Assembly: GCA_012839805.1 (NCBI GenBank)
Contig: DUMU01000035.1
Location: 105,296 to 169,295, forward strand
Length of the DNA stretch: 64,000 nt
Direction: 5' to 3'
DNA from: Bacillota bacterium
GTDB lineage: Bacteria; Bacillota; Limnochordia; Limnochordales; DUMU01
The notes beneath the pieces are model-generated. The model made no database searches. It was not told the DNA's origin and worked only from the letters and a program-made list of their open reading frames with translations. This document shows positions 20,526-38,089 of the stretch, one piece after another. A program made the position numbers and the translations under genes. Each line of letters starts with the position of its first letter. The first letter of the stretch is position 1.

Positions 20526-21413
20526 ATGACAAAGAAGATCACTGCCATGAGCGCGGGCCGCAGGGAAGCCACGACGGGGGAGGCCGTGACCGGGGATACC
20601 GGCCGAGGGGATGGTGCTCCCGAGAACCCCCGAGGCGGGACGGTCGAGGGCGAGAGCAGGGGCGAGAGTAAAGGTACGATCCTGGTGGTGGACGACGAGC
20701 CCAACGTGGTGGAGATCGTTCGCCTGTACCTGAGTCGCGAGGGTTTCACCGTCTTGACGGCCCTCGATGGTGAGGCCGCTCTGGCCCTGGCGCGGCGCAC
20801 GCCTCCTCCCGACCTGATCGTTCTCGACCTCATGCTCCCCAAAGTCGATGGGTGGGAGGTCTGCCGGCGGGTGAGAACGTTCTCCGCCGTGCCCATCATC
20901 ATGTTGACCGCCCGGGGGGAGGACATCGATCGCATCGTCGGCCTGGAGCTCGGAGCCGACGACTATCTGGCCAAGCCCTTCAACCCTCGGGAACTGGTGG
21001 CGAGGGTGAAGGCGGTGCTACGCCGTACCAAGGGAGCGCTGGTCGCGGAGACCGCGAGCCCCGGCGGTTCGGCCAAAGCGGCAGGCCACACGACCCTTCG
21101 ATACCCCGGGCTTACCATCGACCGGGAGGCCCGGGAGGTTTGGGTGCGAGACCGCCGGATAAGCCTGACCCCCAAAGAGTTCGAGCTTCTCTGGCAGCTC
21201 GCGAGCTCCCCCGGCAGGACGTTCACCCGGGAAGAGCTGCTCGAGTCGGTATGGGGTTACGAGTTCTTCGGCAGTGATCGGACGGTGGATGTTCACATAA
21301 AGCGCCTGCGGGAAAAATTGGAAAAAAGTGAGGACCTGCCGCCCTATCTGCAGACGGTCTGGGGCGTGGGGTACAAATTCGACCCTCTGGCGGGCGACCT
21401 TCGGCAGCCGTAA
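20526..21413 (+). CDS. OmpR/PhoB-family response regulator with a roughly 50-aa low-complexity N-terminal extension
   Basis: ATG 20526 lies 5 nt after TAGGAG. The receiver domain reads ILVVDDEPNVV...DLIVLDLMLPKVDG. The winged helix reads LTPKEFELLWQLASSPGRTFTREELL...TVDVHIKRLREKL. Confidence 0.9.
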   Translation: MTKKITAMSAGRREATTGEAVTGDTGRGDGAPENPRGGTVEGESRGESKGTILVVDDEPNVVEIVRLYLSREGFTVLTALDGEAALALARRTPPPDLIVLDLMLPKVDGWEVCRRVRTFSAVPIIMLTARGEDIDRIVGLELGADDYLAKPFNPRELVARVKAVLRRTKGALVAETASPGGSAKAAGHTTLRYPGLTIDREAREVWVRDRRISLTPKEFELLWQLASSPGRTFTREELLESVWGYEFFGSDRTVDVHIKRLREKLEKSEDLPPYLQTVWGVGYKFDPLAGDLRQP

Positions 21414-21597
21414 AGGTTGTGGCTCGGGGCGGTGAGGGTTTCGGGTGGGAGCGTGCGGGGTTATGGCTGGAAAGGTGAGGGACAAGGCAGGAGAGGCCGG
21501 GGTTGGGGGTAGGAGCGCCGAAGGATCTGGGTAGGAGGGTCGGGATACGAAACGAACGCTTTTCGTACGGCTTTTCGCCAGCTACCTTCTTATCATC

Positions 21598-23442
21598 GTG
21601 GTGACCGTGCTGGTCTCGGGCTCGTTGCTGTCGTATTTCGTAAGCAACTACTTGTACCGCGAACAGCGCGAACGCCTGATCGTTCAAGCACAAGAGATCT
21701 CATTCCTGGTCGGTGCGGCGCTCGCTTTGCCGGGAAGCCCGGCGGCCATGCTACGCCTGGCCGATACTTTCGAGCGGCTGCTCGGAGCGGCGGTCTGGAT
21801 CACCGACGCTAGCGGGGAAGTAGTGATCACCTCCCCGCGTTTCCGCCAGGATCGGGGGCGCCGCTTGCCGGCCGCCGAAATAGAACGGGTGCTGGCGGGG
21901 AAGACGGTAGTTCACCTGCAGTACGACCCCCAGGTGCGGGAGAACGTGTTGAGCGTGGCCATCCCCATCTGGGTGAACGGCCGTCCGGCCGGTGCGGTAG
22001 TGGTCCGCTCTCCGCTCACGGGGATGGCCGCCACCTGGCAGGGAATCCGCCGTGAGCTCGGGCGGGCCGCGCTGCTGGCGGTGGTGTTCGCGGCGCTGGT
22101 GGGGCTCACGCTATCGCGGCGCATTTCCGGGCCGGTGCGGGAGATGACCGCCGCCACCCGGAAGCTGGCCGCCGGGCAATACCGGGTGAACGTGCCGGTG
22201 CGGGGCGATGACGAACTGGCGGAACTCGCCGGGGCGATCAATGAATTATCTGAAAGGCTCGACAATACCATTGCCGCCCTCAACCGGGAAAAGAGCCAGA
22301 CGCAGGCCATATTGACCAGTATCGCGGAGGGGGTCATCGCCGCCGGCGCGCGGGGAGAGGTGCTTTTCGCCAACGGGCCGGCCCGTCGTCTCCTGGGGTG
22401 TGATGACGCCCCGGATCAGGACGGAGGGGCGCGCCTCGCAGAACTAACCGGGACGCCGGTCCGGGAAGCGGCCCGAGAGGCGCTGATGCGGGCATTGACC
22501 CAAAACCAGGCCGTGCAGATACAGGTGGAAGGGCTGGGCGGGAGGCAGCTGGCCATTGTCGCTTCCCCGGTCCGGGGAAGCGCGGGAGAGTCGCAAGGGG
22601 CGGTGGCACTGCTCCGGGACATCAGCGAGGAGATAAGGCAGGAACGGAATCGCCGGGAGTTCCTCGCCAGCGTCTCCCATGAACTGAAAACTCCCCTTAC
22701 TTCCATCCGCGGTTTTCTGCAGGCGCTGGTGGACAAGGTGGCCGGGGATGAGAAGGAGGTTCAGCGGTATCACCGGCTCATGCTGCAAGAGACGATCCGG
22801 CTGACCCGCCTGGTCAACAGCCTCCTCGACCTTTCCCGCATCGAAAGCGGGGTGCTGCAACTGCACCTCCAGCCGGTCGACCTGGGTGAACTGGCCGACG
22901 AGGCAGTAAACCAGATGCTTCCCGAAAGTGACGATAAGGGGGTAAGCCTGGAGAACAAGGTTGGCGTCGAGGAGGAATTGCCCCTCGTGTGGGCGGACCG
23001 TGATCGGGTAAAGCAAATCCTGATCAACCTTCTTGACAACGCCGTTCGGCACACGCCGGCCGGAGGCCAGGTGGAGGTGAGTGCACACCTGGTTTCGAGC
23101 AGGGGCGCAGGCCCGGGCGCGGGTGCTGACACGGAAGTGGAAGTGCACGTCCGGGACACGGGCGTGGGCATACCGGCGGAAGAGCTTCCCAATATCTGGG
23201 AGCGGTTTTATAAGGTTGACAAGAGCCGGCGCCGTTACGTGGAGGGAGACGCCGGCGGTATGAGCGACCGTAGCGGGCGTGAAGCCGCAGGCGAGGGCAG
23301 CGGCACGGGGTTGGGGCTCGCCATCGTCAAGGAGCTGGTTCTTCTCCACGGCGGCCGGTTGGGTGTGGACAGCGAGCCCGGGCGGGGTTCGGATTTCTGG
23401 TTCACGCTGCCGGTGCAGGGACCCCGCCGGCCACCAGAGTGA
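21598..23442 (+). CDS. sensor histidine kinase (TM, HAMP, PAS-like, HisKA, HATPase_c)
   Basis: The H-box is SHELKTPLTSIRGF. The N, G1 and G2 boxes are NLLDNAVRHTP, RDTGVGIP and GTGLGLAIV. The first canonical start is GTG 21598, but the frame stays open and is TM-helix-like from 21535. See the finding on the start codon. Confidence 0.9.
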   Translation: MVTVLVSGSLLSYFVSNYLYREQRERLIVQAQEISFLVGAALALPGSPAAMLRLADTFERLLGAAVWITDASGEVVITSPRFRQDRGRRLPAAEIERVLAGKTVVHLQYDPQVRENVLSVAIPIWVNGRPAGAVVVRSPLTGMAATWQGIRRELGRAALLAVVFAALVGLTLSRRISGPVREMTAATRKLAAGQYRVNVPVRGDDELAELAGAINELSERLDNTIAALNREKSQTQAILTSIAEGVIAAGARGEVLFANGPARRLLGCDDAPDQDGGARLAELTGTPVREAAREALMRALTQNQAVQIQVEGLGGRQLAIVASPVRGSAGESQGAVALLRDISEEIRQERNRREFLASVSHELKTPLTSIRGFLQALVDKVAGDEKEVQRYHRLMLQETIRLTRLVNSLLDLSRIESGVLQLHLQPVDLGELADEAVNQMLPESDDKGVSLENKVGVEEELPLVWADRDRVKQILINLLDNAVRHTPAGGQVEVSAHLVSSRGAGPGAGADTEVEVHVRDTGVGIPAEELPNIWERFYKVDKSRRRYVEGDAGGMSDRSGREAAGEGSGTGLGLAIVKELVLLHGGRLGVDSEPGRGSDFWFTLPVQGPRRPPE

Positions 23443-23692: not shown

Positions 23693-26140
23693 GTGAAGGG
23701 TCGAGTGCCAGCGAATAGGCGGCTTGCCCGGGTGGTGGTCCGGCTAGCGGCGGCGTGGTTCGTCGTAACCGGGGTGCTGGCTGGCGTTGCGTGGACCTCC
23801 GCTACCTTTGTCCTTAATCACAGCCCTCTGCCCGGTCTGGTGGCCCAACGGGTCGATGCGGCGCTGGAAGCGGCTCTGGGAGAAGGATACCAAGCCGTAG
23901 TGGCAAAACCCTACTTCACGTCGCCCCGGCGGCTGATCATACCTGAAATCCGCTTGTCCACGGAGCAGGGAATGCAGGTTGCCCGGGGTAACCGGGTCGC
24001 GCTTGCTTTCCAGTGGAAGACCGTTCTCCAGGCCCTAGTAGCGCGGGCCGACGCTACCCCGGCCATTGACCGCCTCGCGGTAGGCGAGCTGGCTCTCGAT
24101 GTCGGAACTCTGCCGGCGGGAGAGTGGGGCCGGCCGGGGGAGAATGGCCGCCAATCCCGCGGCCCCGATGATCGCTGGCGCGCGGGCGGGAGCGGGGACC
24201 TTTTGGCCGGGCTAGACTGGACGAAGGTGAGGGAAAGAGTGCAGGCCCTACCGGGCTTGGTCGAAATTCACAAGCTGAGGCTGGATAAAGCCGGAAGACC
24301 CCTCCTAACCGTTTCCCGGGTTGAACTCACCGCGAAGACAAGTGGCCTGATCCTGTCATTCCAGGTGAACCCGGCGGTGGCAGCGGTGGGGGTCCCCGTT
24401 TTGGATGGCCTTACTCGATGGAGAGCGAACGTGAGTTGGCCGGGCGGGTCGACAGTTCCCCGGGTCGAGATTGAAGGAAGCCTCGTACGTGGTGGGACCT
24501 TGCTCGTTGCCGGCAAGCTCGTCCCGATCGATTCGGGAGTGCTGGCGGCGGTCTGGCCCGGGGGCCGGGCCATCGATGCGGGTGTCACGAGTGCAGGTGC
24601 AACTGCAGGCCCGGGTACGAGCGTGGGTAGAGGCGCAGGAGGGGTTCGGATAACGCAGCTTCGCCTCACGAGTGGTGATAGCTCGGTGGTGGCGAAAGGG
24701 GATATCCTTCCTGGGGAAGGAGCACGTGGCGGTCGTGACTGGAGATATCCCCGGCTGAACCTGCAGGTCCGGGCCCAGAGGGTACGGTTTCCGGAGCAAC
24801 TACCCTTCCTGGCTGCCTACGGTGTGTCCGGTACCGCTTCTTTGAGCGACGGGCATCTTACGGGGCGTTGGCCGGATCCCGTCCTCACCGGCAGGGTGTT
24901 CAGCGAAGGAGGCACGCTCTTCGGCCGGGGTTTCCGGCGGCTGGAGGGAGACATTCAAGTCGACCGTTATAGCTTTCTCTTCCGGAACACGATATTATTA
25001 GGGAAAGCAACAGTTGCCATTGGATCCAGTCATTACCGATTGAACGGAAGGTTTGTTTACCCTCGTCCCGCGGCGGGACGGCGAGGGCAGCTCGAGATTA
25101 TCATGGAGACGCAGCAAGGCAGGATTGAAGAGTGGGGGCCGGTTTTCGTTCCTTCCCTGTCCGAGCTGAAGGGGCCGGTGGCCGGGCGGCTGGAAGTAAG
25201 CGGCCTCTTGGGAGATCTGGGGGTACGGGGGGACCTGGTGGTCGCGGGAGGGACGTACCGCAACGTACCCTTTGATCGCCTCGACGCCAGGTTTTTCTGG
25301 CGGGGCGGGCGGCTGCGCCTCGAGCAGGGCAGAGTGCAGGTGGCCGGGGCAAGGGTCGATCTGCAGGGGGAGGTAAGACCTTCGGGACTGATGACGATGG
25401 AGGTGGCCGGGAAAGGGGTGCCGCTCGAGCTCTTGTGGGCGGCGGGTGTGCCGGGGACGAGCGGGCCTGCCGGGTTTAGCGATTCTTCGCGGTCTGGCGA
25501 TTTTTATGGGAGGCTGGCTCAACTAGTTCGCGAGGCGAGAGATGGGTGGTTGGCAGACCGGGCGCTCGTGGCCGGAGAGGCGGAGTTCCACGGGGAGCTG
25601 GGGGGGACGACGGCAGCGCCGGCTCTGCGGGCCAATGTCCGGTCCGGGGGAGTGAGGATAGGGCGTTTCTGGTTCGATAGCGCTGCCGGGCAGGTCTCCT
25701 GGGACGGCCGGGATTTTACCATCCCGCTTCTCGCCCTCAAGCGGGAGAACGGCGGGATGTACCAGATGACCGGCCAGGTGAAAGAACTGGCTCTGGGTAC
25801 ACCCCAGCTCGACCTGCAAGTGCGGGTGAGTGGTGAACCGGTAGACCAGTTACTGGAGCTGGTAGCCGGCGGCGGGGGCCACGTAAACGGGAGCGGGAAG
25901 TCTGGCCGGGGCGGGCCGGGCGCAGGGCTTGAGGTCCGCTTGTCGGAGCTCGCCCTGGTGAACGGCTGGGTCTACGGGGAGGCCCGAGTATCGGGGACGC
26001 TTGCCGAACCGTCGGCGAGGGCCAGCCTGACGGTAGCGCAGGGCCGGATCTTAGGCCGGGCGCTGGACGTTGCCTTGAGCCTGCGGGTAGTCGAGGGCAA
26101 AGTACGGGTTGAGCGAGTACGGTGGTCGGCGGCGGGGTAA
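23693..26140 (+). CDS. membrane-anchored beta-rich protein, TamB/AsmA-like
   Basis: GTG start 9 nt after GAGAGGAGGG. It has one N-terminal TM (VVRLAAAWFVVTGVLAGVAW). Segments of the type LTGRWPDPVLTGRVFS, VSGLLGDLGVRGDLVV, LGGTTAAPALRANVRS and VSGTLAEPSARASLTV then recur. These resemble the G-x-L-x-x-P-x-L-x-G repeats of TamB/DUF490. No HMM search was run. Confidence 0.45.
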   Translation: MKGRVPANRRLARVVVRLAAAWFVVTGVLAGVAWTSATFVLNHSPLPGLVAQRVDAALEAALGEGYQAVVAKPYFTSPRRLIIPEIRLSTEQGMQVARGNRVALAFQWKTVLQALVARADATPAIDRLAVGELALDVGTLPAGEWGRPGENGRQSRGPDDRWRAGGSGDLLAGLDWTKVRERVQALPGLVEIHKLRLDKAGRPLLTVSRVELTAKTSGLILSFQVNPAVAAVGVPVLDGLTRWRANVSWPGGSTVPRVEIEGSLVRGGTLLVAGKLVPIDSGVLAAVWPGGRAIDAGVTSAGATAGPGTSVGRGAGGVRITQLRLTSGDSSVVAKGDILPGEGARGGRDWRYPRLNLQVRAQRVRFPEQLPFLAAYGVSGTASLSDGHLTGRWPDPVLTGRVFSEGGTLFGRGFRRLEGDIQVDRYSFLFRNTILLGKATVAIGSSHYRLNGRFVYPRPAAGRRGQLEIIMETQQGRIEEWGPVFVPSLSELKGPVAGRLEVSGLLGDLGVRGDLVVAGGTYRNVPFDRLDARFFWRGGRLRLEQGRVQVAGARVDLQGEVRPSGLMTMEVAGKGVPLELLWAAGVPGTSGPAGFSDSSRSGDFYGRLAQLVREARDGWLADRALVAGEAEFHGELGGTTAAPALRANVRSGGVRIGRFWFDSAAGQVSWDGRDFTIPLLALKRENGGMYQMTGQVKELALGTPQLDLQVRVSGEPVDQLLELVAGGGGHVNGSGKSGRGGPGAGLEVRLSELALVNGWVYGEARVSGTLAEPSARASLTVAQGRILGRALDVALSLRVVEGKVRVERVRWSAAG

Positions 26141-26154
26141 AGGAGGGAGCTGCC

Positions 26155-28029
26155 ATGGCGGGCCAGGGGCGGCGGCAGGACGTAGTCCCGGAGCTCACCG
26201 CAGCTCAGTGTGAGGCACTGGGGCGCTACGGCGGGCTGAACCTGATCACTGCCATGCTGGAGGCCATCGAGAGTCGCGAACCGCTCTACCGCGGCCATTT
26301 CTCGCGAGTCTCGAGTTATTCCCGTATCATTGCCCAGGAGCTTGGTTTTGGGCCGGATCAGGTACGGGCCGTAGAGGTGGCAGGCCTCCTGCACGACGTC
26401 GGCAAGGTGGGGGTAAGCGACGATATCCTGCGGCGGGTGAACGAGCTCGAGCTGCATGAGGTCCAGCTGCTGATGCAGCATGCGGTCATCGGGGCGGCGA
26501 TAGTTCAGCGTGACCCGGCCCTGGCGGCGCTTGCTCCCCTCATTCGCCACCATCACGAGTGGTATTCGGGCGGCGGGGTTCCGGATGGTCTGGTCGGGGA
26601 GGAGATCCCCTGCGGGGCGCGGATCATCAGCATCGCCGATGCTTTCGACCTGTTGACGTCGGTCTCGCCTTTCGGGGGGCCTATCCCCTGGACTGACGCA
26701 GTGGCGCGGCTGCGGGATCTGGCCGGGAGGCAATTCTGGCCGGCCGGGGTCGAGGCCCTGGCGAACCGGGTGGCGCGAGATGCCCAGGAGGGGGCGGCCT
26801 ACGTTCGGTTCCTGGACGGTCGGATACGGCCGATTCCCGGTGTGATCGTGCCCGGCGGCCCCGGCGGTTGGGGTAGCCCGGGCGGCCCCGGCAGTGCGGC
26901 GGGCCCGGGCAGCGCGGGTAACCAGGGCGAGGCGGCCGGCCCGGCGGGCTCTGGCGGCGGGAGCCTGGCCGGCAGCAGCGGCGCGGTGGCGGCCCGAGAA
27001 CTCTGGCAGGCGGGCATCGGCATCGGCCCGCTCTCCCCCGTTCATACCCGGTCGCTGGTGGTCCTTTACCGGGTGGCCACGGCGCTCGGCGCGGTTCTCG
27101 ACCTTCGTGAGATGTTAAGCCGTGTGATTGAGATCATCCAGCAGGACGTCGGATATGCTGACGCAGCCCTGGTCCTGTTGGATCCACATCAAGACCAGCT
27201 GGTGGTGGCGGCCGGGGGCGGGAGCTATCGCTCGCAGGAAGGTTTCTGCTTCTCAGCCCAGGAGGGGTTGAGCGGGCAAGCCTTGAAACGAAGGTCGGTC
27301 GTCTATGCCCCGGATGTTACCAAAGAGCCCAGCTATCTCCCGGGAGCGATTCGGATTAGGGCGGAGGCCGCCATCCCGCTCGTCGTCGACGACCGGCCGG
27401 TGGGGGTTTTGGTCATCGGCAGCCCGCACGTGGCCGGGGTCAGGCTCGAGGATATCCAGGTGTTGCGTATGATAGCCGCTGAACTGGCCACCGCCATCGA
27501 GGTGGCCCGCCATTACCAGGAGGCGAGCACGGCGTCCACGGTGGATGGCCTCACCCAGCTCTATAATCATCGCTATTTCTGGGACCGGCTGGCCCAGGAG
27601 ATCGCCCGGGCCGAGCGGTACCAGCATCCTTTGCAGGTGGCCATACTGGATGTGGATGATCTCAAAGCCATTAATGACCAGCGGGGGCATCTGGCCGGCG
27701 ACCAGGCTTTGCGGATGATCGCGCAGACGCTGAAGGTAAATACCCGCTCATCGGATGTCCTGGCCCGGTATGGTGGAGATGAGTTCGCGATCATCTTCCC
27801 GGAGACGCCAAAGGACGGGGCCTGGCGCACGCTCTGCCGGATCGGGGACGCGCTGGAGCACGGCACTTTCGAGATCGAAGGGGTCAAAGCACGAATCAGT
27901 GGGGTGAGCTACGGGCTGGCCGGTTACCCGGAGGAAGGCCGGACCGCGAAGGAACTGGTGGCCCTGGCCGACCAGCGGATGTACGTGATGAAGCAAGCGA
28001 AGGAAGCGGGCCGAACGGCAGCGACGTGA
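26155..28029 (+). CDS. c-di-GMP signalling protein: HD-GYP-like (HD-GVP), GAF and GGDEF domains
   Basis: ATG 26155 lies 6 nt after AAGGAGGGA. The HD domain reads GLLHDVGK and HHHEWYSGGGVPDGL. A Gly/Pro linker follows, then a GAF-like region, then a GGDEF domain with an intact RYGGDEFA. Confidence 0.85.
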   Translation: MAGQGRRQDVVPELTAAQCEALGRYGGLNLITAMLEAIESREPLYRGHFSRVSSYSRIIAQELGFGPDQVRAVEVAGLLHDVGKVGVSDDILRRVNELELHEVQLLMQHAVIGAAIVQRDPALAALAPLIRHHHEWYSGGGVPDGLVGEEIPCGARIISIADAFDLLTSVSPFGGPIPWTDAVARLRDLAGRQFWPAGVEALANRVARDAQEGAAYVRFLDGRIRPIPGVIVPGGPGGWGSPGGPGSAAGPGSAGNQGEAAGPAGSGGGSLAGSSGAVAARELWQAGIGIGPLSPVHTRSLVVLYRVATALGAVLDLREMLSRVIEIIQQDVGYADAALVLLDPHQDQLVVAAGGGSYRSQEGFCFSAQEGLSGQALKRRSVVYAPDVTKEPSYLPGAIRIRAEAAIPLVVDDRPVGVLVIGSPHVAGVRLEDIQVLRMIAAELATAIEVARHYQEASTASTVDGLTQLYNHRYFWDRLAQEIARAERYQHPLQVAILDVDDLKAINDQRGHLAGDQALRMIAQTLKVNTRSSDVLARYGGDEFAIIFPETPKDGAWRTLCRIGDALEHGTFEIEGVKARISGVSYGLAGYPEEGRTAKELVALADQRMYVMKQAKEAGRTAAT

Positions 28030-28051
28030 AAATGGAACTATGGCTTCAGGC

Positions 28052-29746
28052 TCAAAGTGGATGCTGTAGCGTGTCGACGGGGGCGTAGTCGTCGGTAAGC
28101 ACTGCTGCCCGGGCGGCCAGCTCGCGTTTGTCCGTCCACTCGACATCATCTACCAGCGTGTCCGCATAGAGTTCAACCGGTTCTTGGATATCCCCTTGCT
28201 CTCGGAGTTTAGCTGCCTCTTGCTGCCAGGTCAGGCGATCCCAGCGCCGGGCGGAACGGTTGGCGATCAGGATCACGTTGCGTTCACCCCAGTCGCCAGG
28301 GCCGGACCAGCCGCCGACCGGGAAAAGGTACCAGGTCGGGAAAACTTGAGCGAAAGTGCGGGTCATGGAAGCAAGCAGGCGGGCCTTGGGGCCTGCGAGT
28401 GCTCCGATGATGTTGGACACGACCGCGCCGTCGCGGGCGAGGATAGCGTCGAGTGAACTGATGAACTCATAGGTGGTAAGGTGGTAAGGAATCGCGTCGG
28501 CGAAGTAGGCATCGACCACGATTAGATCGTAGCGCTGGGCACGGCCGGCGCGGACGGCGGCGGCGGCCTGCTCGACGAAGAGACGCCCGTCCTGAACGAT
28601 GATGCGAAGGCGGGGATCATCGGGGAGGCGGAAGAAGCGGCGGGCGACGTTCACTACTTCGGGGTCGATTTCCACCACGTCGACCTGGCGCAAGGAAGGG
28701 TAGTCGTGCAGGAAGCGGGCCGGGGCGGAGCCGCCGCCAAGGCCGATGAAAAGCATTCGTTCCGGGCGAGGGCGGGCGACCACGCCCAGATGCAGGTACG
28801 AGGTGTAGGCAAAGGCCATGCGCAGCGGGTCGTCGAGATACATGCCACTTTGGAAAGAATTGTCGAAGTGAAGGTGACGTACGCCCTGGTAGTCGTCCAC
28901 GGTGATGTGGTGGTAGAGCGTATCACGGGAGTATAGGATCGTGGCCGAACCCGGCGGGTGCGGGCTGGCCTCGATCACGACGAAGCGCCAGACCAGGACT
29001 AAAATGAGAGCGGCGAAGAGGAGCAACAGTGAGGTCAAGGAAGCGAGCCGGCTCCGGCTCGAAAGGCCGCCGTCAATCGCAATCTGGCTCGGGCGAGTGG
29101 CGGCAGGGCCTCGATCGCCATGTTTGGCGCGCGGGATGGACTGCCGGACCGGTTCGCCGGTCTCGGACGCCAGGTGCTGCCGGCGGGCGAAGGTGAGGGC
29201 GGCCGCCGCCAGGAGAAGCAGGATCAGCCCCAGCATGTGAACTATATTCCGCACGCCGAGGGCGGGGATGAGGAAAAACGAGGTGACCAGGGTGCCCAGG
29301 ATGCTGCCGGCGCTGGAAAGAGCCGAGAGGCGGCCGGCGGTCTTGCCGATGGTGGTGAGGCTCCGGCTCGCGAGTTTGACGGAGTAAGGCGAGATGGAGG
29401 CCAGGAGAGTACTGGGCAGGAAGAAAAAGGCGACGGCGGCCAGGAGCGAGCCGGCCCGGGGACCGAGGCCGGCCAGGGCCTGGTTCACGCTGGCGCTCCA
29501 GACCGGGAGGAAGCCGACCAGGAGGCCGGCCAAGGCCAGGATGAGGCCCATGACCCCCAGGCTCGGCCGGCGATCGGCCATGCGACCGCCCAGGTAGTAG
29601 CCGAGGGTGAGGGCGGCCATGACCACAGTGATGAGCGCGCCCCAGACGTAGATAGAAGTTCCGAACGTGGGGGCGAGGAGGCGGCTACCGATCATCTCAA
29701 GGCCCATCAGGACCGCACCACTCAGGAACACGATGAGGTAAAGCAC
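28052..29746 (-). CDS. fused polytopic-membrane (MFS-like)/spermidine synthase-like protein
   Basis: Lies inside ORF 28052..30262. The likely start is GTG 29746 (VLYLIVFLSGAVLMGLEMIGSRLLAP). About 7 TM helices are followed by a spermidine-synthase fold (LFIGLGGGSAPARFL...VDVVEIDPEVVNVARRFF, YDLIVVDAY). The upstream 172 codons are Pro/Arg/Gly repeat sequence and are treated as non-coding. Confidence 0.8.
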   Translation of the reverse strand: MLYLIVFLSGAVLMGLEMIGSRLLAPTFGTSIYVWGALITVVMAALTLGYYLGGRMADRRPSLGVMGLILALAGLLVGFLPVWSASVNQALAGLGPRAGSLLAAVAFFFLPSTLLASISPYSVKLASRSLTTIGKTAGRLSALSSAGSILGTLVTSFFLIPALGVRNIVHMLGLILLLLAAAALTFARRQHLASETGEPVRQSIPRAKHGDRGPAATRPSQIAIDGGLSSRSRLASLTSLLLLFAALILVLVWRFVVIEASPHPPGSATILYSRDTLYHHITVDDYQGVRHLHFDNSFQSGMYLDDPLRMAFAYTSYLHLGVVARPRPERMLFIGLGGGSAPARFLHDYPSLRQVDVVEIDPEVVNVARRFFRLPDDPRLRIIVQDGRLFVEQAAAAVRAGRAQRYDLIVVDAYFADAIPYHLTTYEFISSLDAILARDGAVVSNIIGALAGPKARLLASMTRTFAQVFPTWYLFPVGGWSGPGDWGERNVILIANRSARRWDRLTWQQEAAKLREQGDIQEPVELYADTLVDDVEWTDKRELAARAAVLTDDYAPVDTLQHPL

Positions 29747-29956
29747 CTTGGCCCTGGCTCCCCTTTCGCCGGGTTTCAGGTCGTCCCGCCCGGTTCTTGC
29801 CGGTACGAGCTGCCGGGTGTGCGAGCCGGCCGGCCTGCGGGAGAGGCCGCAACCGTCTTCGGATGTCCTCCCTTCATTCTCCTGGGGACGGGGAACTCCT
29901 GCCTGCCGGCCCGGTAGGGGCTTGTGCGCTAAGGGCCGGCCCGTGCCGCCAGGGGG

Positions 29957-30260
29957 ATGGCGTATCCTGCACCGGCCGGGTGGCTGTCGTCGGGGAGATG
30001 GCGCATTCTGCACCAGCCGGCGGCGCGGGCGGTGGTGCAAAATGCACCATCCAGGGGGGAAGCGGGGCGGCGGGCCGTGGTCCGAGATGCAGGGCGAAGA
30101 CCGGGACGGCGGCCCGGGGCCGGGATGCAGGGCCCAGACTGCGGCGTGGGCCCGGGGCCGGGATGCAGGGCGCAAACCGGGACGGCGGGGCGTGGACTGG
30201 GCCGCAGGGCGTAGGTCCGGATGGCAGGGGTGGGGGTTGGGACGCAGGCCTTGGGTCGAC
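29957..30260. repeat. degenerate GC-rich tandem array, period about 38-41 nt (two half-units of about 19 nt)
   Basis: Units begin with GATGG/GATGC at 29957, 29998, 30086, 30124, 30162, (30201), 30220 and (30241). GGCCCGGGGCCGGGATGCAGGGC is repeated exactly at 30110-30133 and 30148-30171. Confidence 0.6.
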
Positions 30261-30547
30261 ATACCATCGTTTCAACGGACTGCTAAGGATTGTTCATAGA
30301 TTGGCCACACACTCCGGCCGGGGGTTTGCTATCTTTCTAAGTGGACGATGTCCAACGCGTGGTGCGGGATACCGGCCGGGGCTAGGCGGAGGCCGGTATT
30401 GGTTTCCCGGCCGAGGCCGGTAACGGCCGGCAACAGGTAGAGACCGGATGCAGGGCTGAGGCATTCGCCGAGGCCAGCCGAGGCATCTGCCAAGGCCAAG
30501 TGATAGGCCGAGACAGGCTGGGGGACCGAGTGCAAGGGGGTACAAAC

Positions 30548-31834
30548 ATGCGGGGACTGAAGAGATGGCTAACGGGACGAGCGGCGATCGTGGCAGTCAT
30601 CGTGCTGGTGGCGTTTTTCGCCGGTGCGGCGCTGGTTAGCCAAGGGATAATGCCGGCACCGTTCGACAAGGCGCTGGGGGATGAGGCGACGAAGGAGGCC
30701 GATACCGGGACACAGGTGGGTCCGGCGGTGGCCGGAGGCGTTCAGGCCCTATCTGCGATAGGCGGCGGCGTGCCGATGACCCAGTATACGGTGGCGGATG
30801 TGGCGGATCGGGTCTCACCGTCGGTGGCCTACATCGAAGTTCACTATGCTCTGGTACAAGCAGCGAGCGGGAGGCGGACCCAGCCACGGTTCAGCGACCC
30901 ATTCGATGAGTTCTGGCGCTATTTCTTCTTCGGTACTCCAACCCCGCCGGGGTCAGCCGAGATCCCGCCTTCGGTTGGCAGTGGGGTGGTGGTTAGCCCG
31001 GACGGCTACATCCTCACCAACCAGCACGTGGTAGACGTGCCCTCCGGGCTCAAGATCGACAAGATACAGGTAAGCTTGCCAGGTTTCAACGATCCATTGT
31101 CTGCGAAACTGATCGCCTCCGACCAGCAGCTAGACCTGGCGGTGCTGAAGGTCGATTCCAACCGGCCGTTGCCGGCGGCCCGTCTGGGAGATTCCGACGC
31201 GGTCCGCGTGGGCGAATGGGTAGTGGCCATCGGGAACCCGTTTGAACTGGACCATACGGTCACGGTGGGCGTGATTAGTGCCAAGGACAGGGCAATCGAC
31301 ATCCCGGACGACCAGGGGGGCGTGCGGCCGTACAAGCACTTGATGCAGACGGATGCGGCCATCAACCCCGGTAACTCCGGTGGTCCGCTGGTCAACCTCC
31401 GGGGCGAGGTGGTGGGCGTCAACACGGCAGTGCTGGACGCCAGCCAGGGCCAGGGTATCGGTTTCGCCATCCCGATCAACGCGGCCAAGGAGATGATCGG
31501 GCAGGTAATCCGGAGCGGCAAATACGTGAAGCCCTGGATCGGCATCTCCTACGGTCCGGTGACGGATGATGTCCGGGATTACTTCGGTTTGGACAAGAGC
31601 GTCCAGGGAGTGATCGTAGGCTCGGTCACTCCGGGTAGCCCTGCGGCCAAGGCCGGCTTAAAGCCGGGTGACATCATCACCGAAGTAAACCGCCAGAAGG
31701 TGGTGGATGACGAATCCTTTGCCAAGGCCATCGCGGACATGAAAGTAGGACAGAAGATGAGCTTCCTCGTCCTGCGAAACGGGAAGCCTCAGGTACTGAC
31801 CGTGGTGGTCGGCGAGTGGCCGCAAGAGGGCTAG
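30548..31834 (+). CDS. htrA: HtrA/DegP-family serine protease with PDZ domain
   Basis: ATG 30548 lies 7 nt after AAGGGGG. It has an N-terminal TM. The catalytic triad context reads ILTNQHVV, DLAVLKV and GNSGGPLVN. The C-terminal PDZ reads GSPAAKAGLKPGDIITEVN. Confidence 0.92.
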   Translation: MRGLKRWLTGRAAIVAVIVLVAFFAGAALVSQGIMPAPFDKALGDEATKEADTGTQVGPAVAGGVQALSAIGGGVPMTQYTVADVADRVSPSVAYIEVHYALVQAASGRRTQPRFSDPFDEFWRYFFFGTPTPPGSAEIPPSVGSGVVVSPDGYILTNQHVVDVPSGLKIDKIQVSLPGFNDPLSAKLIASDQQLDLAVLKVDSNRPLPAARLGDSDAVRVGEWVVAIGNPFELDHTVTVGVISAKDRAIDIPDDQGGVRPYKHLMQTDAAINPGNSGGPLVNLRGEVVGVNTAVLDASQGQGIGFAIPINAAKEMIGQVIRSGKYVKPWIGISYGPVTDDVRDYFGLDKSVQGVIVGSVTPGSPAAKAGLKPGDIITEVNRQKVVDDESFAKAIADMKVGQKMSFLVLRNGKPQVLTVVVGEWPQEG

Positions 31835-31861
31835 GCTGGCGGTAAGAAGCAACCGATAAAG

Positions 31862-31920
31862 CAAAGCACAGCCGGAAGAGGGCAAAAGCTAGACCTCTTC
31901 CGGCTGTGCTTTGTTTTTTT
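31862..31920 (+). terminator. rho-independent terminator of htrA
   Basis: A perfect 20-bp stem pairs CAAAGCACAGCCGGAAGAGG with CCTCTTCCGGCTGTGCTTTG. The loop is 12 nt and a T7 run follows. Confidence 0.85.
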
Positions 31921-31961
31921 GCTTCCCTGCGTGGGCTGTTAGGCGATCATTGCCGTGACGG

Positions 31962-32076
31962 CGGGCTTACGGGGTTTAAGCGCCGATGGGGCTTGAGTGC
32001 TAAGGGGGCTTAAGCGCTGGTGGGCTTGAGTGCCGGCGGGCGGCGGGGCTTGAGTGCCGACGGGGCTTTCGCGAGC
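31962..32076. repeat. degenerate tandem array, period about 17 nt (GGGGCTTRAGYGC units)
   Basis: GGGCTTGAGTGC occurs 3 times (31988, 32022, 32046). GGCTTAAGCGC/GGTTTAAGCGC variants occur at 31972 and 32006. GGGCTTAC and GGGCTTTC form the ends. Confidence 0.6.
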
Positions 32077-32747
32077 CAACGGTAGCCGGTGACCCAACCG
32101 GTTGAACGTGTTACCGGCGTGGCAGGTGGGAATTGTACCTGGCTTCCCGAGCCGAGCAGGTGAAAAATGTACCCACCGGCGGGCCCGGAACTCCTGCCCG
32201 GTGGGGGTGGGGAAGGCAGGCCGGCGAAGGCCAAGCGGTCTACCAGGAGTTTTGAACGCCGAGATCCTACGGGAGCGCCCGCCTCCCCCCTGGCTTACGG
32301 CCCGTGGGAGCGTTCTCAGGAGTTGGAAGGTACATTTTTCACCCACTGTCACTTCGAAGCCAGGTGCAAAAAGTACCTGCCGGCCCGGGGCGGGGGCGAT
32401 AGCACAAGCGCGGAAGAGTGTCGGCCGATGGCCGGAAGAGCGCCGGTCGGTGGGCGGAAAAGTGCGGCCGATGCGCGTGTGCGGAAGGATGCAGGCAAGC
32501 GCTGCCGGGTTCACCAGTACTTACAACGCTTCTAGCAGCAGGAATACAGAAGCCCAGCTAGAAATCTTGTGCCCGTGAACGAGAAGGCCGGACGTTCACC
32601 CGGATCGACCTTCACCTGGATCTCCGGTGAACGCTCTGCGGCCATGGAAGGGCGGAGAGGCCAGCCAGGTCTCGGATCGGCCAAAGTGTCGCAAGATTGT
32701 ACCTTTTAGGCTTTTATAAAGTTTACCCGTCGCGTGGGCCCTCTCGG

Positions 32748-32758
32748 GAAAGGAGGTG
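32748..32758 (+). promoter_or_regulatory. SD-like element GAAAGGAGGTG deep in the leader of porin-like gene 1 (STAB-SD-like)
   Basis: A perfect anti-SD complement lies 285 nt upstream of ATG 33043. Only a 7-codon ORF follows it. The same 11-mer occurs in the leader of the paralog, at 34638. Confidence 0.3.
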
Positions 32759-33042
32759 ACCCCTGCGTGCGGAGGGCGTGGCGAGGCGGGTAAAGGGGCG
32801 CAGACGCAGTCTTCGCAGCCGCCGGGAGCGTGTGCGAGGTGAGGAAACGAGGAAACTCCCCCCGCCTGAGCTCCCGCTACGTAGCCAGGAAGGAAACAAG
32901 GTCGTTCTAAGCTTCGAGATCTATCCGCACCATTCGGAGCAGCAATAGTCGAGGCTAGATCGGCAGTTCAGAAGCTGCGTCCCGGTTTCCGGTAACTCCA
33001 ACGCAGTTCATCTACGTAGCACGCAGCACAAGGGGGATATCC

Positions 33043-34260
33043 ATGAACAAACTAGCAGCAGTTGTATCCGTCGCATTGGCCGTCGCCATGGCGGCACCGG
33101 TCGTGGCGGCCGGCCCGAGCCTGAGCGGCTCGCTCGAGGGCAAGCTCCGCTGGCAGCAGGGCGCCGAGCCTACCTCAGGTGCAAACCTTAAACTCAATCT
33201 CGGCTTCCAGGCCGGTGACAAGACCAAGGCAGTCCTCGGGCTGGCCCCGAGCATCGACGGGAATGCTTGGGCGGCCGGCATCGAGCGCATCGACGTCACC
33301 AAGGCGTACGTTGAGACCCAGGGGCCGTGGTGGAAGGGCGGTCCGGCCGTTACCACCCGCATCGGCGACCTCGACATCGATTACTCGCCGTACGTGGCCA
33401 AGATCAGCTCGACCGAGGGCCAAACCCGTGGTCTCAGCGTGAGCGGGCTTCAGGTAGGCCCCTTCGCGCTGGCCGGGTTCCATGCCTGGGACAACAACGC
33501 CGGAACGTCGCCGTCAAAGCTCCAGAACCATCAGGCGACCGGTATCCGGGTGGCCGGGCAGATCGCCGGGATCAACCTGGCGGCCACCGGCGTGATGGAA
33601 GGTGAGCGCCTATCGGGAGCCCTCGAAGGATCAACCCAGGTGCTTCCCAACGTGGCCATCGGCGGGGCGCTAGCCCGGGATGAGGCCAACCGGGCGACCA
33701 TGTACCGCATCGGTGCCCAGGTCGTACCGGTCAGCAACCTGGCGGTCATCGCCGAGTACGGTCGGGTACCGAGCCAGTTCGCACCGCTCTACGTTGACGG
33801 TGACCCGAACGGCTTCGTAGCCCAGACCCGCGGCCAGGCGGTCGTCAATCTGGGTGCTGCCACGGAGCAGGCTGGATTCCGGCTGGGCGCAGGACTCAAG
33901 ATGGCCCGGGCGGAGAACGCCGACCAGTTCCGCCGGACCGAGACCACCTTCACGGCGGCTCGTACGGTGGCTCTGCAGGGCATCCCGGTGGAGACCAGCT
34001 ACCGACTGACGATCGACGGTCAGAACAAGATGACCCACGAGATCGCCGGTAAAGCGACGCTCAACCTGATCCCTGCCCTTCAGGGCCTGACGGTCGACGG
34101 TAAAGTGAAAATGGCGGACAGCAAGATGGCCTACGGTGTCAACGCCGGTTACACTGCACCGAACGGAATGCAGTTCGGACTCCACTACGACAACGGCGAC
34201 ATCGACGGTAACGGCACCGCCGGTCTCTCCGCCGACGCCGGCCTGACGGTCAGCTTCTGA
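33043..34260 (+). CDS. putative outer-membrane beta-barrel (porin-like) protein 1
   Basis: AAGGGGGA lies 5 nt before the ATG. The signal peptide is MNKLAAVVSVALAVAMAAPVVAAG. Amphipathic beta-strand patterning runs throughout. The C-terminus is ADAGLTVSF, with a terminal Phe and hydrophobic residues at -3, -5, -7 and -9. Confidence 0.6.
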   Translation: MNKLAAVVSVALAVAMAAPVVAAGPSLSGSLEGKLRWQQGAEPTSGANLKLNLGFQAGDKTKAVLGLAPSIDGNAWAAGIERIDVTKAYVETQGPWWKGGPAVTTRIGDLDIDYSPYVAKISSTEGQTRGLSVSGLQVGPFALAGFHAWDNNAGTSPSKLQNHQATGIRVAGQIAGINLAATGVMEGERLSGALEGSTQVLPNVAIGGALARDEANRATMYRIGAQVVPVSNLAVIAEYGRVPSQFAPLYVDGDPNGFVAQTRGQAVVNLGAATEQAGFRLGAGLKMARAENADQFRRTETTFTAARTVALQGIPVETSYRLTIDGQNKMTHEIAGKATLNLIPALQGLTVDGKVKMADSKMAYGVNAGYTAPNGMQFGLHYDNGDIDGNGTAGLSADAGLTVSF

Positions 34261-34283: not shown

Positions 34284-34318
34284 CAAGCCCCCGAGGGGAT
34301 CGCCCCTTCGGGGGCTTG
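34284..34318 (+). terminator. GC-rich hairpin after porin-like gene 1 (no clear U-tract)
   Basis: CAAGCCCCCGAGGGG ... CCCCTTCGGGGGCTTG lies 24 nt after the stop codon. Confidence 0.4.
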
Positions 34319-34637
34319 CCGCGCTTGTGGCGTGCGCTTGATACGTGACCGCCAGGCGGGCGCAAGCCGTCGAACATAATCGTCCCCGCCGTGCATAGCG
34401 TGAACTACGCGCCGAGGTACTTCCAGTCGGGACAATTCCCGCACGATTACGACAATTGGTCCCCCCCTTTCCGAGCTGGTCGTTTCCGGTATAATCAGGG
34501 CTGTCTGGGGCGATGAAAAATCTCTGTCAGTCCGACGAAGATCTGGCAGGAATTCACGACCCCGGATCGAATACGGGAGTGATAGTGGCCAAGGTGTTCT
34601 TGGCGGGCGAGGTCGCGGCTTCCGCCGTGCGGGAACC

Positions 34638-34648
34638 GAAAGGAGGTG
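34638..34648 (+). promoter_or_regulatory. SD-like element GAAAGGAGGTG in the leader of porin-like gene 2 (STAB-SD-like)
   Basis: The same 11-mer as at 32748, here 173 nt upstream of ATG 34821. A perfect TATAAT at 34490-34495 is a possible -10 box for this leader. Confidence 0.3.
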
Positions 34649-34820
34649 TCTTCAGTTTGGTCCGTACGGGGGTAGCGGCGAGCCGATGGCGGGCGAAGGC
34701 ATCCTGGGGTGGGAAGAGAACGAGGAAGACTTCCCGCCGGACGGGGCGGCCTTCCCAGTCAGAGGTTGTTTCGCACTCCTGCATTCCAAGTTTCCTAATC
34801 CAAACTGAGGAGGTCGAAGT

Positions 34821-36380
34821 ATGAAGCGCATCTCCCTTCTACTTGCTCTCGTGGCGGTGTTGGCGCTGGCGGGGACTGCCGCTGCGGGGCCGAACGTCTC
34901 TATCAGCGGCGAGAGCACGCTGGTCGTCTCGGGCAACACGGACGATCTCACTCCGAGCGTTGGCGGCCTCACTTTCGGAATGAAGCAGGATATCTCCATC
35001 AGTGGCGACAAGTGGTCTCTGAGCGGGAAGCTGTATCTGCCCCATTCGGCTTCCCTGAGCATCAGTGACCCGACGGAAACGAAAGAAGTGCTTACCCGCT
35101 TCTGGGTAAAGGAAGTTAACGAGGGTACCGAGGAAGCCCCGGACTACCATTACTACGTGGAGGAGCTCGGATGGGAGCTCATTCAAGTGTCTGGGAACTG
35201 GGTAGCTATCACCGGCTACGATGACGAGGATAACCCGGAGTTGGTAGAGGAGTTCTACGAAATCTACATTGACGACCAGGATAAGCCGGTCGTCGTCGTA
35301 GCTCTTGTGAGTCTCACTTACGTGAAGGATGTGTCCGGCAGCCTTACGCATGGCTCGAATCCCTGGTTCTCACTTACGAGCTGGAAGCTGACGATGGACG
35401 CCGGGGCGGCCAAGTTCGCGTTCGCCAACGGCGCCGACCTGACAGACTATGGGGATCACCTGGGCTTCATCAGCTTGGCCAAGGGTGCAAGCGGTAATCA
35501 CATGCAGGTGACCGTACCGCTTCAGAACCTGACGCTTGTCTATGATAAGGCTGGTGCCCAGGAAGGCGCCTATGTTAAGATCGCAAAGGGGGTCATCCCG
35601 GCCGAAGTCATCGGGATGTACGACGCCACCACCAGCCGGTATTCTGCGACAGTCCGCTACGACTTCGGGGGTGGACTTTGGACCGAAATCGGTGCAGTAA
35701 TGGCGCAGGGCAAGACCAACGGTGCGGGCTACGGTGCCGAGGTCAACGTACCCCTCACCCAAGACCAGTCGCTGGTCGCGTACATCGTCGGCAAGCAGTT
35801 TGGCAGCGGGTATACGGACACAGCGCTTAACGGCCGTACTGTCACGCTAGGTCAGCTGACCTACACGCAACCGCAGTACAAGGCGAAGGCGTACATCTGG
35901 ACCAAGTTCAAGGCCGACGGTTCGGTCGAGCAGCGCGATCATTATTTGGAGGGCTCTCTCGTACAGAAGGCGGGAGACCCGCTCGGCTGGTACACCGACT
36001 GGCCCTATAACAAGTATCGCAACCTGAAAGGACTTGGGCTCTACGCGAAGTACGACATCGACTCGCCGGCTCTCGTGGCTGGCCTAGGGGCGCCGGTGGT
36101 CCCGGGTAAGGCTGCACTCAAGCTCTCGAGCCCGAACCTGCTGGCGAAGGACGCCAACAATAAGGGTATCGTAGAGGTCAACGGAGAGCTTTATGTGAAG
36201 CTGAGCGACAAGCTCAACTCGGTGACTAACGTGCAGTACAAGCAGGGCACGGGTGTGACCCAGCTCCAGGATACGCTCAACTACACCGTGTCGAGCAACT
36301 CTTCGATCAGCCTAACGCTGACGAAGCCGACTAATGCCAACCGGCTGGATTACACGGCCACCTTCAAGGTCTCCTACTGA
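34821..36380 (+). CDS. putative outer-membrane beta-barrel (porin-like) protein 2
   Basis: GAGGAGG lies 7 nt before the ATG. The signal peptide is MKRISLLLALVAVLALAGTAAAG. The mature N-terminus GPNVSISGE parallels GPSLSGSLE of protein 1. The C-terminus is LDYTATFKVSY, with a terminal Tyr and alternating hydrophobic residues at -3 to -11. Confidence 0.55.
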   Translation: MKRISLLLALVAVLALAGTAAAGPNVSISGESTLVVSGNTDDLTPSVGGLTFGMKQDISISGDKWSLSGKLYLPHSASLSISDPTETKEVLTRFWVKEVNEGTEEAPDYHYYVEELGWELIQVSGNWVAITGYDDEDNPELVEEFYEIYIDDQDKPVVVVALVSLTYVKDVSGSLTHGSNPWFSLTSWKLTMDAGAAKFAFANGADLTDYGDHLGFISLAKGASGNHMQVTVPLQNLTLVYDKAGAQEGAYVKIAKGVIPAEVIGMYDATTSRYSATVRYDFGGGLWTEIGAVMAQGKTNGAGYGAEVNVPLTQDQSLVAYIVGKQFGSGYTDTALNGRTVTLGQLTYTQPQYKAKAYIWTKFKADGSVEQRDHYLEGSLVQKAGDPLGWYTDWPYNKYRNLKGLGLYAKYDIDSPALVAGLGAPVVPGKAALKLSSPNLLAKDANNKGIVEVNGELYVKLSDKLNSVTNVQYKQGTGVTQLQDTLNYTVSSNSSISLTLTKPTNANRLDYTATFKVSY

Positions 36381-36398
36381 GACAAGGGGCTCGTGGAA

Positions 36399-36426
36399 GA
36401 ACCCCCCGGCGATCGCCGGGGGGTTC
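36399..36426 (+). terminator. perfect 28-nt palindromic hairpin after porin-like gene 2
   Basis: GAACCCCCCGGCGATCGCCGGGGGGTTC lies 18 nt after the stop. There is no U-tract. Confidence 0.5.
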
Positions 36427-36979
36427 TCGCGCGTACTCCCGGCAAGGGTAGTGCCTATACGGTGAACGTTAGGAGTGCAGGGAGACCTGCGGGTGGCCCG
36501 GAGCGACCGGCAATCCAGCCTGAGAGGGCTGGCTGGGCCCGCAGGAGTCAGTAGAGGTCATAGTATCTGCGGAGGCACGAACACAGGGAAGGGCCGAACG
36601 GTGGAACAAGGGATCGAATTGGGCAAGTTCGCGAGGCGAGCAAAAAAGGGAGCCAAGCTGGAAACAGCGATCGGGGGGTGTCGCGGTTGCGCCCCTCCTG
36701 CTCGATGTCACGGGGTGAGCTCCGACGGGTGGTGGAGCTGGGCAGGAGAGGCTTGAAAAAGATAGGGCAACGGCATTAGTGGCAGCAGGAGATCGTGCAA
36801 GGGCGTCGAATGGAGCAAAGGCGCGGAAGGACGTCCGGAAGGCGCTCGCGCCGTGGTTTGACCGCTCCCGCAGGCATGTTGACGCCCAAACGTCAATATG
36901 ATGGAGAGAGGGGCTTGCGGCGGGTAGCGCCGAGCAGGGCACAAAAGGGCCCGGAGGGCATTGCGGGGAGGTAGGAGGA

Positions 36980-38089
<1,110 letters not shown>

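Follow-up and report, generated by a model that had tools for sequence, protein, structure and literature searches.

Two outer-membrane protein genes of a Limnochordales-like Firmicute share a two-hairpin leader with a Shine-Dalgarno-like apex

Two adjacent genes encoding porin-like proteins, on a 64,000-nt stretch of DNA referred to here as the window (contig DUMU01000035.1 of assembly GCA_012839805.1, from an uncultured Limnochordales-like Firmicute, judging from the names of homologues), are each preceded by a long 5′ leader. Both leaders contain two RNA hairpins, H1, which carries a Shine-Dalgarno (SD)-like element at its tip, and H2, whose stem covaries, and both lie downstream of a motif of the SigH promoter type. 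This narrowly distributed two-hairpin leader, together with its shared promoter motif, is a new finding. The leaders are conserved, their hairpins covary, the SD-like element is complementary to the anti-SD sequence, and coding constraint is absent. They very likely represent a conserved post-transcriptional element, and a stabilising role like that of the STAB-SD element of Bacillus thuringiensis cry3A is plausible by analogy. The two genes are:

33043–34260, + strand: gene 1, 405 aa, ATG at 33043
34821–36380, + strand: gene 2, 519 aa, ATG at 34821

The leaders were compared across recovered loci with the syntenic order htrA-OMP1-OMP2 (OMP, outer-membrane protein), which form four lineages: A (the window together with L004 and L012), B (L001, L006, L009, L011, L014, L015 and L038), C (L003) and D (L017–19, leader 2 only). 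A genome scan with a gene 1 profile returned only three loci. Of the 64 loci returned by a metagenome scan with CCAAACTGAGGAGGN7ATGA, only L038 is a true orthologue, and the others supplied 332 kb of unrelated DNA as a negative control for the H2 model described below. Three distant gene 1 homologues (L084, L085 and L086) lie in a neighbourhood different from that of the window, argG-argH-ask-porin, and their leaders present the same series of elements: the promoter motif, H1 with a GGAAAGGAGGTG apex, H2, and CAAGGGGG as the true SD. A preliminary description of this DNA had proposed that the two leaders share five collinear conserved blocks. When orthologous leaders were inspected, the SD-like element (block 3) and block 4 proved to be retained, even in these homologues at 28–29% protein identity. 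Retention of the elements where the proteins are only ~28% identical suggests that the leaders probably control mRNA stability or translation. In divergent pairs of loci, the leaders differ at 9–29 positions per 150 nt, compared with 43–71 in the first 150 nt of gene 2. Some contigs filed as “Bacteroidota bacterium” metagenome-assembled genomes (L006, and those of proteins P0015, P0019 and P0020) bear a Limnochordales-type OMP locus with its leaders and are therefore probably mis-binned; P0019 and P0020 are apparently two paralogues within one such genome.

The features of H1 in the two leaders are as follows:

32722–32794, + strand: leader 1 H1, with basal helix UUUACCC × GGGUAAA, inner helix GCCCUC.CG × CG.GAGGGC and an SD-like apex
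32748–32758, + strand: leader 1 SD-like element, GAAAGGAGGTG; with the next A, 12 nt are complementary to the canonical 16S 3′ end
34608–34685, + strand: leader 2 H1, an irregular stem of ~28 bp with an SD-like apex
34638–34648, + strand: leader 2 SD-like element, also GAAAGGAGGTG

The 11-mer GAAAGGAGGTG occurs twice in the 64 kb, against 0.06 occurrences expected. Its core, AAGGRGGTG, is invariant in both leaders, in the four lineages and in the three distant gene 1 homologues, and forms a 9–12 nt complement to the 3′ end of 16S rRNA, as scored with an assumed canonical tail from which the host's own tail may differ. When all 14-mers on both strands of the window were ranked by anti-SD duplex energy, the leader 1 element came second (–21.8 kcal/mol) and the leader 2 element fourth. 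The single variable position (A/G) keeps its pairing with CCUCC, and conservation extends over the flanks predicted from the anti-SD sequence. The preliminary description placed the 11-mer 285 and 173 nt upstream of the respective ATG codons, and these distances are correct; both leaders have an SD-like sequence within their predicted 5′ untranslated region, far from the start codon, as STAB-SD elements do. In line with its remark that the element lacks a conserved ORF after it, no conserved peptide follows, coding constraint being absent and the reading frames differing.

Single-sequence folds of the 80 nt around AAGGRGGTG yield a long irregular hairpin of ~70–75 nt with the motif at its tip, in all lineages, in both leaders and in L084–L086. 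The hairpin of leader 2 is markedly more stable than its shuffled counterparts (z-scores –4.45, –3.74, –3.81 and –4.75; 0/200 shuffles as stable), and the z-scores for leader 1 are –3.0, –1.8 and –1.5. The sequence of the lower stems varies from lineage to lineage while the pairing stays, with compensatory pairs detected by RNAalifold, including changes in leader 1 of L003. Many of the pairs are G-U, which assigns the structure to the sense strand. When a model was built from leader 2 H1, it found the window's leader 1 at E = 0.84 only and matched none of the other leader 1-type (L1-type) H1 hairpins, even with filters off. H1 is therefore common to the two leaders as an architecture with a shared apical 9-mer, with no detectable homology.

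H2, located about 80–95 nt 3′ of H1, consists of the following:

32835–32868, + strand: leader 1 H2, stem 32839–43 × 32856–60, loop GGAAACGAGGAAA; outer stem GGGAGC (32824–29) × GCUCCC (32870–75)
34708–34742, + strand: leader 2 H2, stem 34708–16 × 34730–38, loop AGAACGAGGAAGA

In both leaders, a stem of 5–9 bp with a covarying 5-bp core encloses a 12–13 nt loop of consensus G-N-A-A-C-R-N-G-G-M-N(N)-A. Block 4, previously described as a linear block, is in fact the loop and 3′ arm of this RNA hairpin, as the covariation reveals. Across 11 sequences, 86.9% of cells in the alignment are paired, compared with 40–52% in slid controls, with compensatory changes in seven of nine pairs and a covariation score that none of 500 shuffles reached. 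Addition of the distant homologues (14 sequences in all) gave 84.7% against 37–50% in slid controls. The five core pairs are formed in 14/14, 12/14, 14/14, 14/14 and 14/14 sequences, with GC, AU, UA and CG pairs swapped for one another. An H2 covariance model found exactly two copies per locus (41 bits for leader 1) and none elsewhere in the window, and gave 15.8–22.3 bits in the distant homologues. In the 332 kb of unrelated metagenomic DNA, it had no match except the one true orthologue. A model trained on leader 1 hairpins alone recovered leader 2 H2 as its best non-training match at all five of five loci (E = 0.0045 to 1.3). Together, the covariation and this recovery across leaders indicate that H2 is a genuinely shared RNA motif. 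A search of both leaders against Rfam release 15 returned no family at the gathering threshold or at E ≤ 5, only terminator-like noise. A second copy of the H2 loop (GGAAACAAGG at 32891–32900, within 32889–32915) occurs in leader 1 of lineage A only; it has no convincing stem and matches the model weakly (E = 2.9).

The five blocks had been taken as evidence that the two leaders are homologous as wholes. Their coordinates are exact (CGGATCG at 32673 and 34563; GGCCAARGTGT at 32679 and 34587; GAAAGGAGGTG at 32748 and 34638; AACGAGGAA at 32846 and 34719; GTTTCC at 32985 and 34790), and blocks 3 and 4 are kept in both leaders of every lineage, whereas blocks 1, 2 and 5 are not kept in leader 1. 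Homology of the entire leaders did not hold up, as alignment, k-mer chains and nhmmer profiles all remained at chance level. The best local alignment between leader 1 and leader 2, which corresponds to block 4, scored 23 against 20.5 ± 2.4 for shuffles, 54 of 300 of which did at least as well. Collinear chains of exact matches were equalled or exceeded in 21/500 (k = 8), 345/500 (k = 7) and 123/500 (k = 6) shuffles, and an nhmmer profile of one leader's orthologues found no match in the other leader in either direction, even at E ≤ 10. As for leader 2, its block 1 shares bases with the –10-like GAAT of the promoter motif, its block 2 forms an arm of a 5′-proximal hairpin (H0), and of block 5 only CCAAAC is kept, inside an invariant CCAAACTGAGGAGG before the ATG. 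On these sequence comparisons, three of the five blocks (1, 2 and 5) are coincidental, and blocks 3 and 4 are real shared elements. Two long-range pairings were also considered and set aside. Pairing of the H2 loop (GGAAAC) with block 5 (GTTTCC) as a pseudoknot is possible in lineage A only and is not conserved. A GTTTGG/CCAAAC helix in leader 2 has two invariant strands and no covariation signal, and GUUUGG folds into H1 instead.

Transcription of the two genes probably starts at a SigH-type promoter, as judged from the following sequence features:

32530–32565, + strand: leader 1 promoter-like block, AGGAAT (32540–45), 15 nt, GAAA(T) (32561–65), that is, AGGA-17 nt-GAAA
34548–34572, + strand: leader 2 SigH-type motif, AGGAAT-N15-GAAT, 17 nt between AGGA and GAAT
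34487–34495, + strand: sigma-A-type –10 candidate CGGTATAAT, 5′ of leader 2, invariant in four lineages

A strong terminator lies 3′ of the upstream htrA (31851–31924) and a terminator-like hairpin 3′ of gene 1 (34287–34315), so that each OMP gene needs a promoter of its own. The SigH consensus, with AGGA at –35, GAAT at –10 and a spacer of 17–18 nt, is known from B. subtilis, C. difficile and the diderm Firmicute Sporomusa (PMC12456013). This consensus is matched by leader 2, by leader 1 of L003 (AGGA-17 nt-GAAT) and by L085 and L086 (AGGAAT-N15-GAAT, 17 nt from AGGA to GAAT), and by leader 1 of the window with one mismatch (GAAA). The shared motif, which the preliminary description missed, lies 5′ of H1 in all leader types, and the pattern AGGAWWW-N11-12-NNNGAAW has two matches in the 64-kb window, one per leader, where 0.25 are expected. 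In leader 1, TTCTAGCAGCAGGAATAC..CCAGCTAGAAAT is the sole strongly conserved block 5′ of H1 in lineages A–C; in leader 2, CTGGCAGGA-N16-CGAATA is kept in all lineages with a variable spacer. Transcription start sites (TSS) are accordingly predicted at ~32572 for leader 1 and ~34580 for leader 2.

The two –10 boxes suggested earlier fared differently. TATAAA at 32715 is absent in lineages B and C and would start the RNA inside the conserved basal helix of H1, and this candidate was abandoned. For CGGTATAAT, no canonical –35 was found, and a search for a full sigma-70 match was negative. An invariant CCCCCTT(C/T)C tract stands at the –35 position (in 34460–34495, 17–18 nt 5′ of CGGTATAAT) and is unlike TTGACA. 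The leader 1 promoter lies inside a perfect 7-nt inverted repeat, TTCTAGC (32530–36)-N20-GCTAGAA (32557–63), which is invariant in lineages A–C, including much of the spacer; from its sequence, this palindrome may be an operator overlapping the gene 1 promoter.

Further elements of the leaders, including the true ribosome-binding sites (RBSs) of the two genes, are:

32795–32803, + strand: 5′ strand of P2, GGGGCGCAG, a predicted long-range helix of leader 1, pairing with 32975–32983
32975–32983, + strand: 3′ strand of P2 in leader 1, CTGCGTCCC; nine pairs by RNAalifold
32799–33028, + strand: seven copies of (A/U)CG(C/U)AG(C), with CGYAG at 32799, 32805, 32814, 32880, 33002, 33015 and 33022
33030–33045, + strand: true RBS of gene 1, AAGGGGGATATCC with the ATG; CAAGGGGGAT is invariant in orthologues and in L084–L086
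34588–34604, + strand: leader 2 H0, GCCAAG-GUGUU-CUUGGC, which contains block 2
34800–34823, + strand: true RBS of gene 2, CCAAACTGAGGAGG, 7 nt and the ATG at 34821; invariant in all lineages

Both strands of P2 are conserved amid diverged sequence, and the changes in them are G-U only, which renders covariation uninformative. CGYAG occurs seven times in leader 1 against 1.6 expected, a count that none of 1000 shuffles reached. The longer (A/U)CG(C/U)AGC is present in 2–7 copies and enriched in seven of seven L1-type leaders (including L001, L003, L006 and L084–L086), and is absent from leader 2-type leaders. In every lineage, leader 2 has a hairpin 4–9 nt from its predicted 5′ end, with sequences that differ.

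We propose that each OMP gene would be transcribed alone, with a predicted 5′ leader of ~470 nt for gene 1 and ~240 nt for gene 2. The H1 apex would present AAGGRGGUG, usually with 11–12 nt of complementarity to the 16S 3′ end, to a 30S subunit. By analogy with cry3A, this subunit would dock there with no productive translation of a conserved peptide, and would form a roadblock to 5′-to-3′ exonucleolytic decay as STAB-SD does against RNase J1. The docked 30S might also serve as a standby ribosome for a structured true RBS, that of leader 2 being predicted to be paired, and H2 would act as a second cis element, read by a putative factor. As a whole, this account of a structured leader with a STAB-SD-like docking apex and a second element falls a little short of probable in our estimation.

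Several observations weigh against it. The TSS and 5′ ends are predictions. In all leaders, GGAGG pairs with the pyrimidine tract that follows it to form an apical mini-stem of 3–4 bp, so that part of the element may be hidden, or its role may be that of a protein site instead; the predicted cost of opening the mini-stem is small (2–7 kcal/mol). A GTG or TTG codon is found 10–11 nt 3′ of the element, and in most lineages the open reading frame (ORF) of leader 2 meets no stop before the true RBS, which makes translation of the leader possible.

Leader translation forms the core of one alternative, in which the SD-like element is the real RBS of a translated leader ORF of irrelevant peptide sequence, and ribosomes unwind H2 and the true RBS, terminate at or beside the porin start and couple translation to it. 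The GTG or TTG past GGAGG is present in all lineages of the syntenic locus, and the TTG-initiated ORF of leader 2 remains open for 48–55 codons in lineages A–D, ending at the TGA within CCAAACTGAGGAGG (–13) or at the ATGA (+3); leader 1 of L003 has an ORF of 100 codons that runs to the ATGA of gene 1. In gene 2, the true RBS is also predicted to be mostly paired, requiring 9.6–12.6 kcal/mol to open compared with 5–6 for the upstream SD-like element. However, the ORF of leader 1 in lineages A and B has only eight codons, with its stop 250 nt before the ATG, and that of leader 2 in L001 stops 39 nt early. L084 and L086 have no start codon at a usable spacing past the SD-like element, so the family as a whole does not share initiation of a leader ORF. 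Neither a conserved start nor an ORF ending at the RBS, as expected of coupling by an upstream ORF, is found in all members. The frames differ where they cross the conserved block 4, some lineages have few stops in other frames as well, the conserved TTG sits in GUUUGG, which is paired in the H1 stem, and the differences among orthologous leaders lack third-position bias and thus any codon-position signal. We consider coupling through a leader ORF unlikely. A conserved small leader protein, as a separate candidate, was rejected on the codon-position counts and the differing frames.

In a second alternative, to which we likewise assign a low probability, H1 and H2 are bound by a regulator acting in trans (a CsrA-like binder of GGA, an autogenous regulator of the envelope or a small RNA) that co-regulates both OMP mRNAs, with the resemblance to an SD incidental or competitive. 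Two hairpins whose purine-rich apical sequences are invariant and whose stems covary, placed as the same modules on two non-homologous genes, would suit such a regulator, and the (A/U)CGYAGC repeats specific to L1-type leaders suggest protein binding at multiple sites. The H2 loop is ACARGGA-like in 9 of 14 sequences, but it reads GGC in place of GGA in the other five, which include all leader 1 sequences of lineages B and C and L086, making CsrA unlikely. CsrA-controlled leaders carry GGA in the loop of every high-affinity site, with one such site over the SD, an arrangement that these leaders lack. Over their full length, the conserved 9–12 nt of H1 correspond to the anti-SD complement, an agreement for which a generic protein site has no need, and the loci seen have no syntenic gene for a candidate regulator.

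That the shared blocks are DNA-level operator or promoter elements, or chance likeness devoid of function, is highly improbable: the pairwise similarity of the window's leaders is indeed at chance and the shared part does include a promoter-like DNA motif, surrounded in leader 1 by a palindrome, but H1 and H2 show compensatory changes and numerous G-U pairs that are sense-strand-specific, the elements persist across homologues of 28% identity, and H2 is absent from the remainder of the window and from the 332 kb of control DNA.

Returning to the docking account, its closest known counterpart is the cry3A STAB-SD, an SD-like sequence that binds the 16S 3′ end with no initiation and halts RNase J1, the enzyme that shortens the –558 transcript to –129 (PMC4113751, PMC3997798). 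The element is attributed to Agaisse & Lereclus 1996 and the RNase J1 mechanism to Mathy et al. 2007 (via PMC4113751, PMC3997798). Like it, the window 11-mer, which contains GAAAGGAGG, is complementary to the 16S 3′ end and has no conserved ORF tied to it, and the predicted primary TSS lies far upstream, like that of the –558 cry3A transcript. Unlike it, the window element occupies the apex of a conserved ~70-nt hairpin and is accompanied by H2, and the leaders belong to OMP genes of diderm Firmicutes.

Other 5′ stabilisers include the phage SP82 polypurine sequence and the B. subtilis ermC, aprE and hbs leaders (PMC5737220, PMC3997798). In these, as we propose for the window, ribosome binding in the leader or 5′ structure protects the message, rather than translation of its body; the 5′ untranslated region is structured, and leader 2 has H0. 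They have no homology to the window leaders in sequence or structure, and the SD that protects hbs is its true RBS, whereas the window leaders have a separate upstream element. The E. coli ompA 5′ untranslated region and the long leaders of S-layer and OMP genes are similar in being long structured leaders on abundant envelope-protein mRNAs, for which control of stability is plausible. The ompA leader differs in belonging to another organism with other decay machinery (RNase E rather than RNases J and Y) and in having no upstream decoy SD, and there is no homology. Standby sites and leader-ORF coupling likewise place an accessible upstream ribosome element before a structured RBS, as predicted in leader 2; in the window, however, the distance is 170–290 nt, and neither the ORF nor its start codon is kept in the wider family.

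That two unrelated barrel genes have such a leader in common, and that it is better conserved than the proteins, points to post-transcriptional control dedicated to them. We tentatively suggest, with less confidence than the docking account itself, that H1 and H2 define an undescribed, clade-specific leader RNA family that precedes the major outer-membrane barrel genes in diderm Firmicutes of the Limnochordia-like kind, and in which a ribosome-docking hairpin and a factor-binding hairpin would jointly set OMP mRNA stability and translation. To our knowledge, almost nothing has been established about OMP regulation in Firmicutes with two membranes. If the hairpin-borne SD does dock the 30S subunit, STAB-SD-type stabilisation would reach beyond Bacillus toxins to envelope biogenesis in deep-branching Firmicutes, and the leader would constitute a compact, portable stabiliser module. 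Such envelope control would be analogous in purpose to the sigma-E and small RNA control of OMPs in Proteobacteria, though differently built, and the H2 loop would offer a handle for finding the trans-acting factor.

Bacteria of the Limnochordales type possess an outer membrane (PMC11456536, PMC10628300). Both proteins have a signal peptide and end in F or Y, and Porin_4 and SlpA_C are matched by members of the gene 1 family. The structure model of gene 2 (pLDDT 69) is a large β-barrel resembling the outer-membrane barrels of usher, LptD and VDAC, with low TM-scores (0.2–0.4). The model of gene 1 was not used, its confidence being too low (pLDDT 37), and a PDB search by sequence gave no match for gene 1. 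On these features and models, both products are classed as porin-like outer-membrane β-barrels, with porin function itself a candidate only. Homology between the two proteins was rejected, as their alignment is limited to the signal peptide.

The region 5′ of the OMP genes (20526–23442 and 26122–31834) encodes an OmpR-family response regulator and a histidine kinase, an HD/GAF/GGDEF protein, a spermidine-synthase-like membrane protein and HtrA; the segment with the GGDEF, spermidine-synthase and htrA genes is syntenic in relatives. Among 26 window ORFs scanned against Pfam, none was identified as RNase J, SigH, CsrA or Hfq. About 130 nt past the gene 2 stop, 36511–36594 (+ strand) matches the Rfam group II intron D1-D4-1 family (57.7 bits). 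Neither other intron domains nor a reverse-transcriptase ORF was detected within 36300–37100, and the lone match therefore has the look of a remnant or a 5′ fragment; in other lineages, a gene of the major facilitator superfamily takes its place.

Upstream of the leader 1 promoter, the window contains an insertion of ~320 nt (~32040–32359) relative to its 98%-identical relatives L004 and L012. The insertion has a look reminiscent of miniature inverted-repeat transposable elements, with inverted repeats GGTGAAAAATGTACC/GGTACATTTTTCACC (32159–73 and 32329–43) and a further pair at 32114–46 and 32356–88. Between the htrA terminator and the leader 1 promoter, a unit of ~17 nt (GGGGCTTGAGTGC...) recurs in tandem-like fashion, with five to six copies in 31954–32073.

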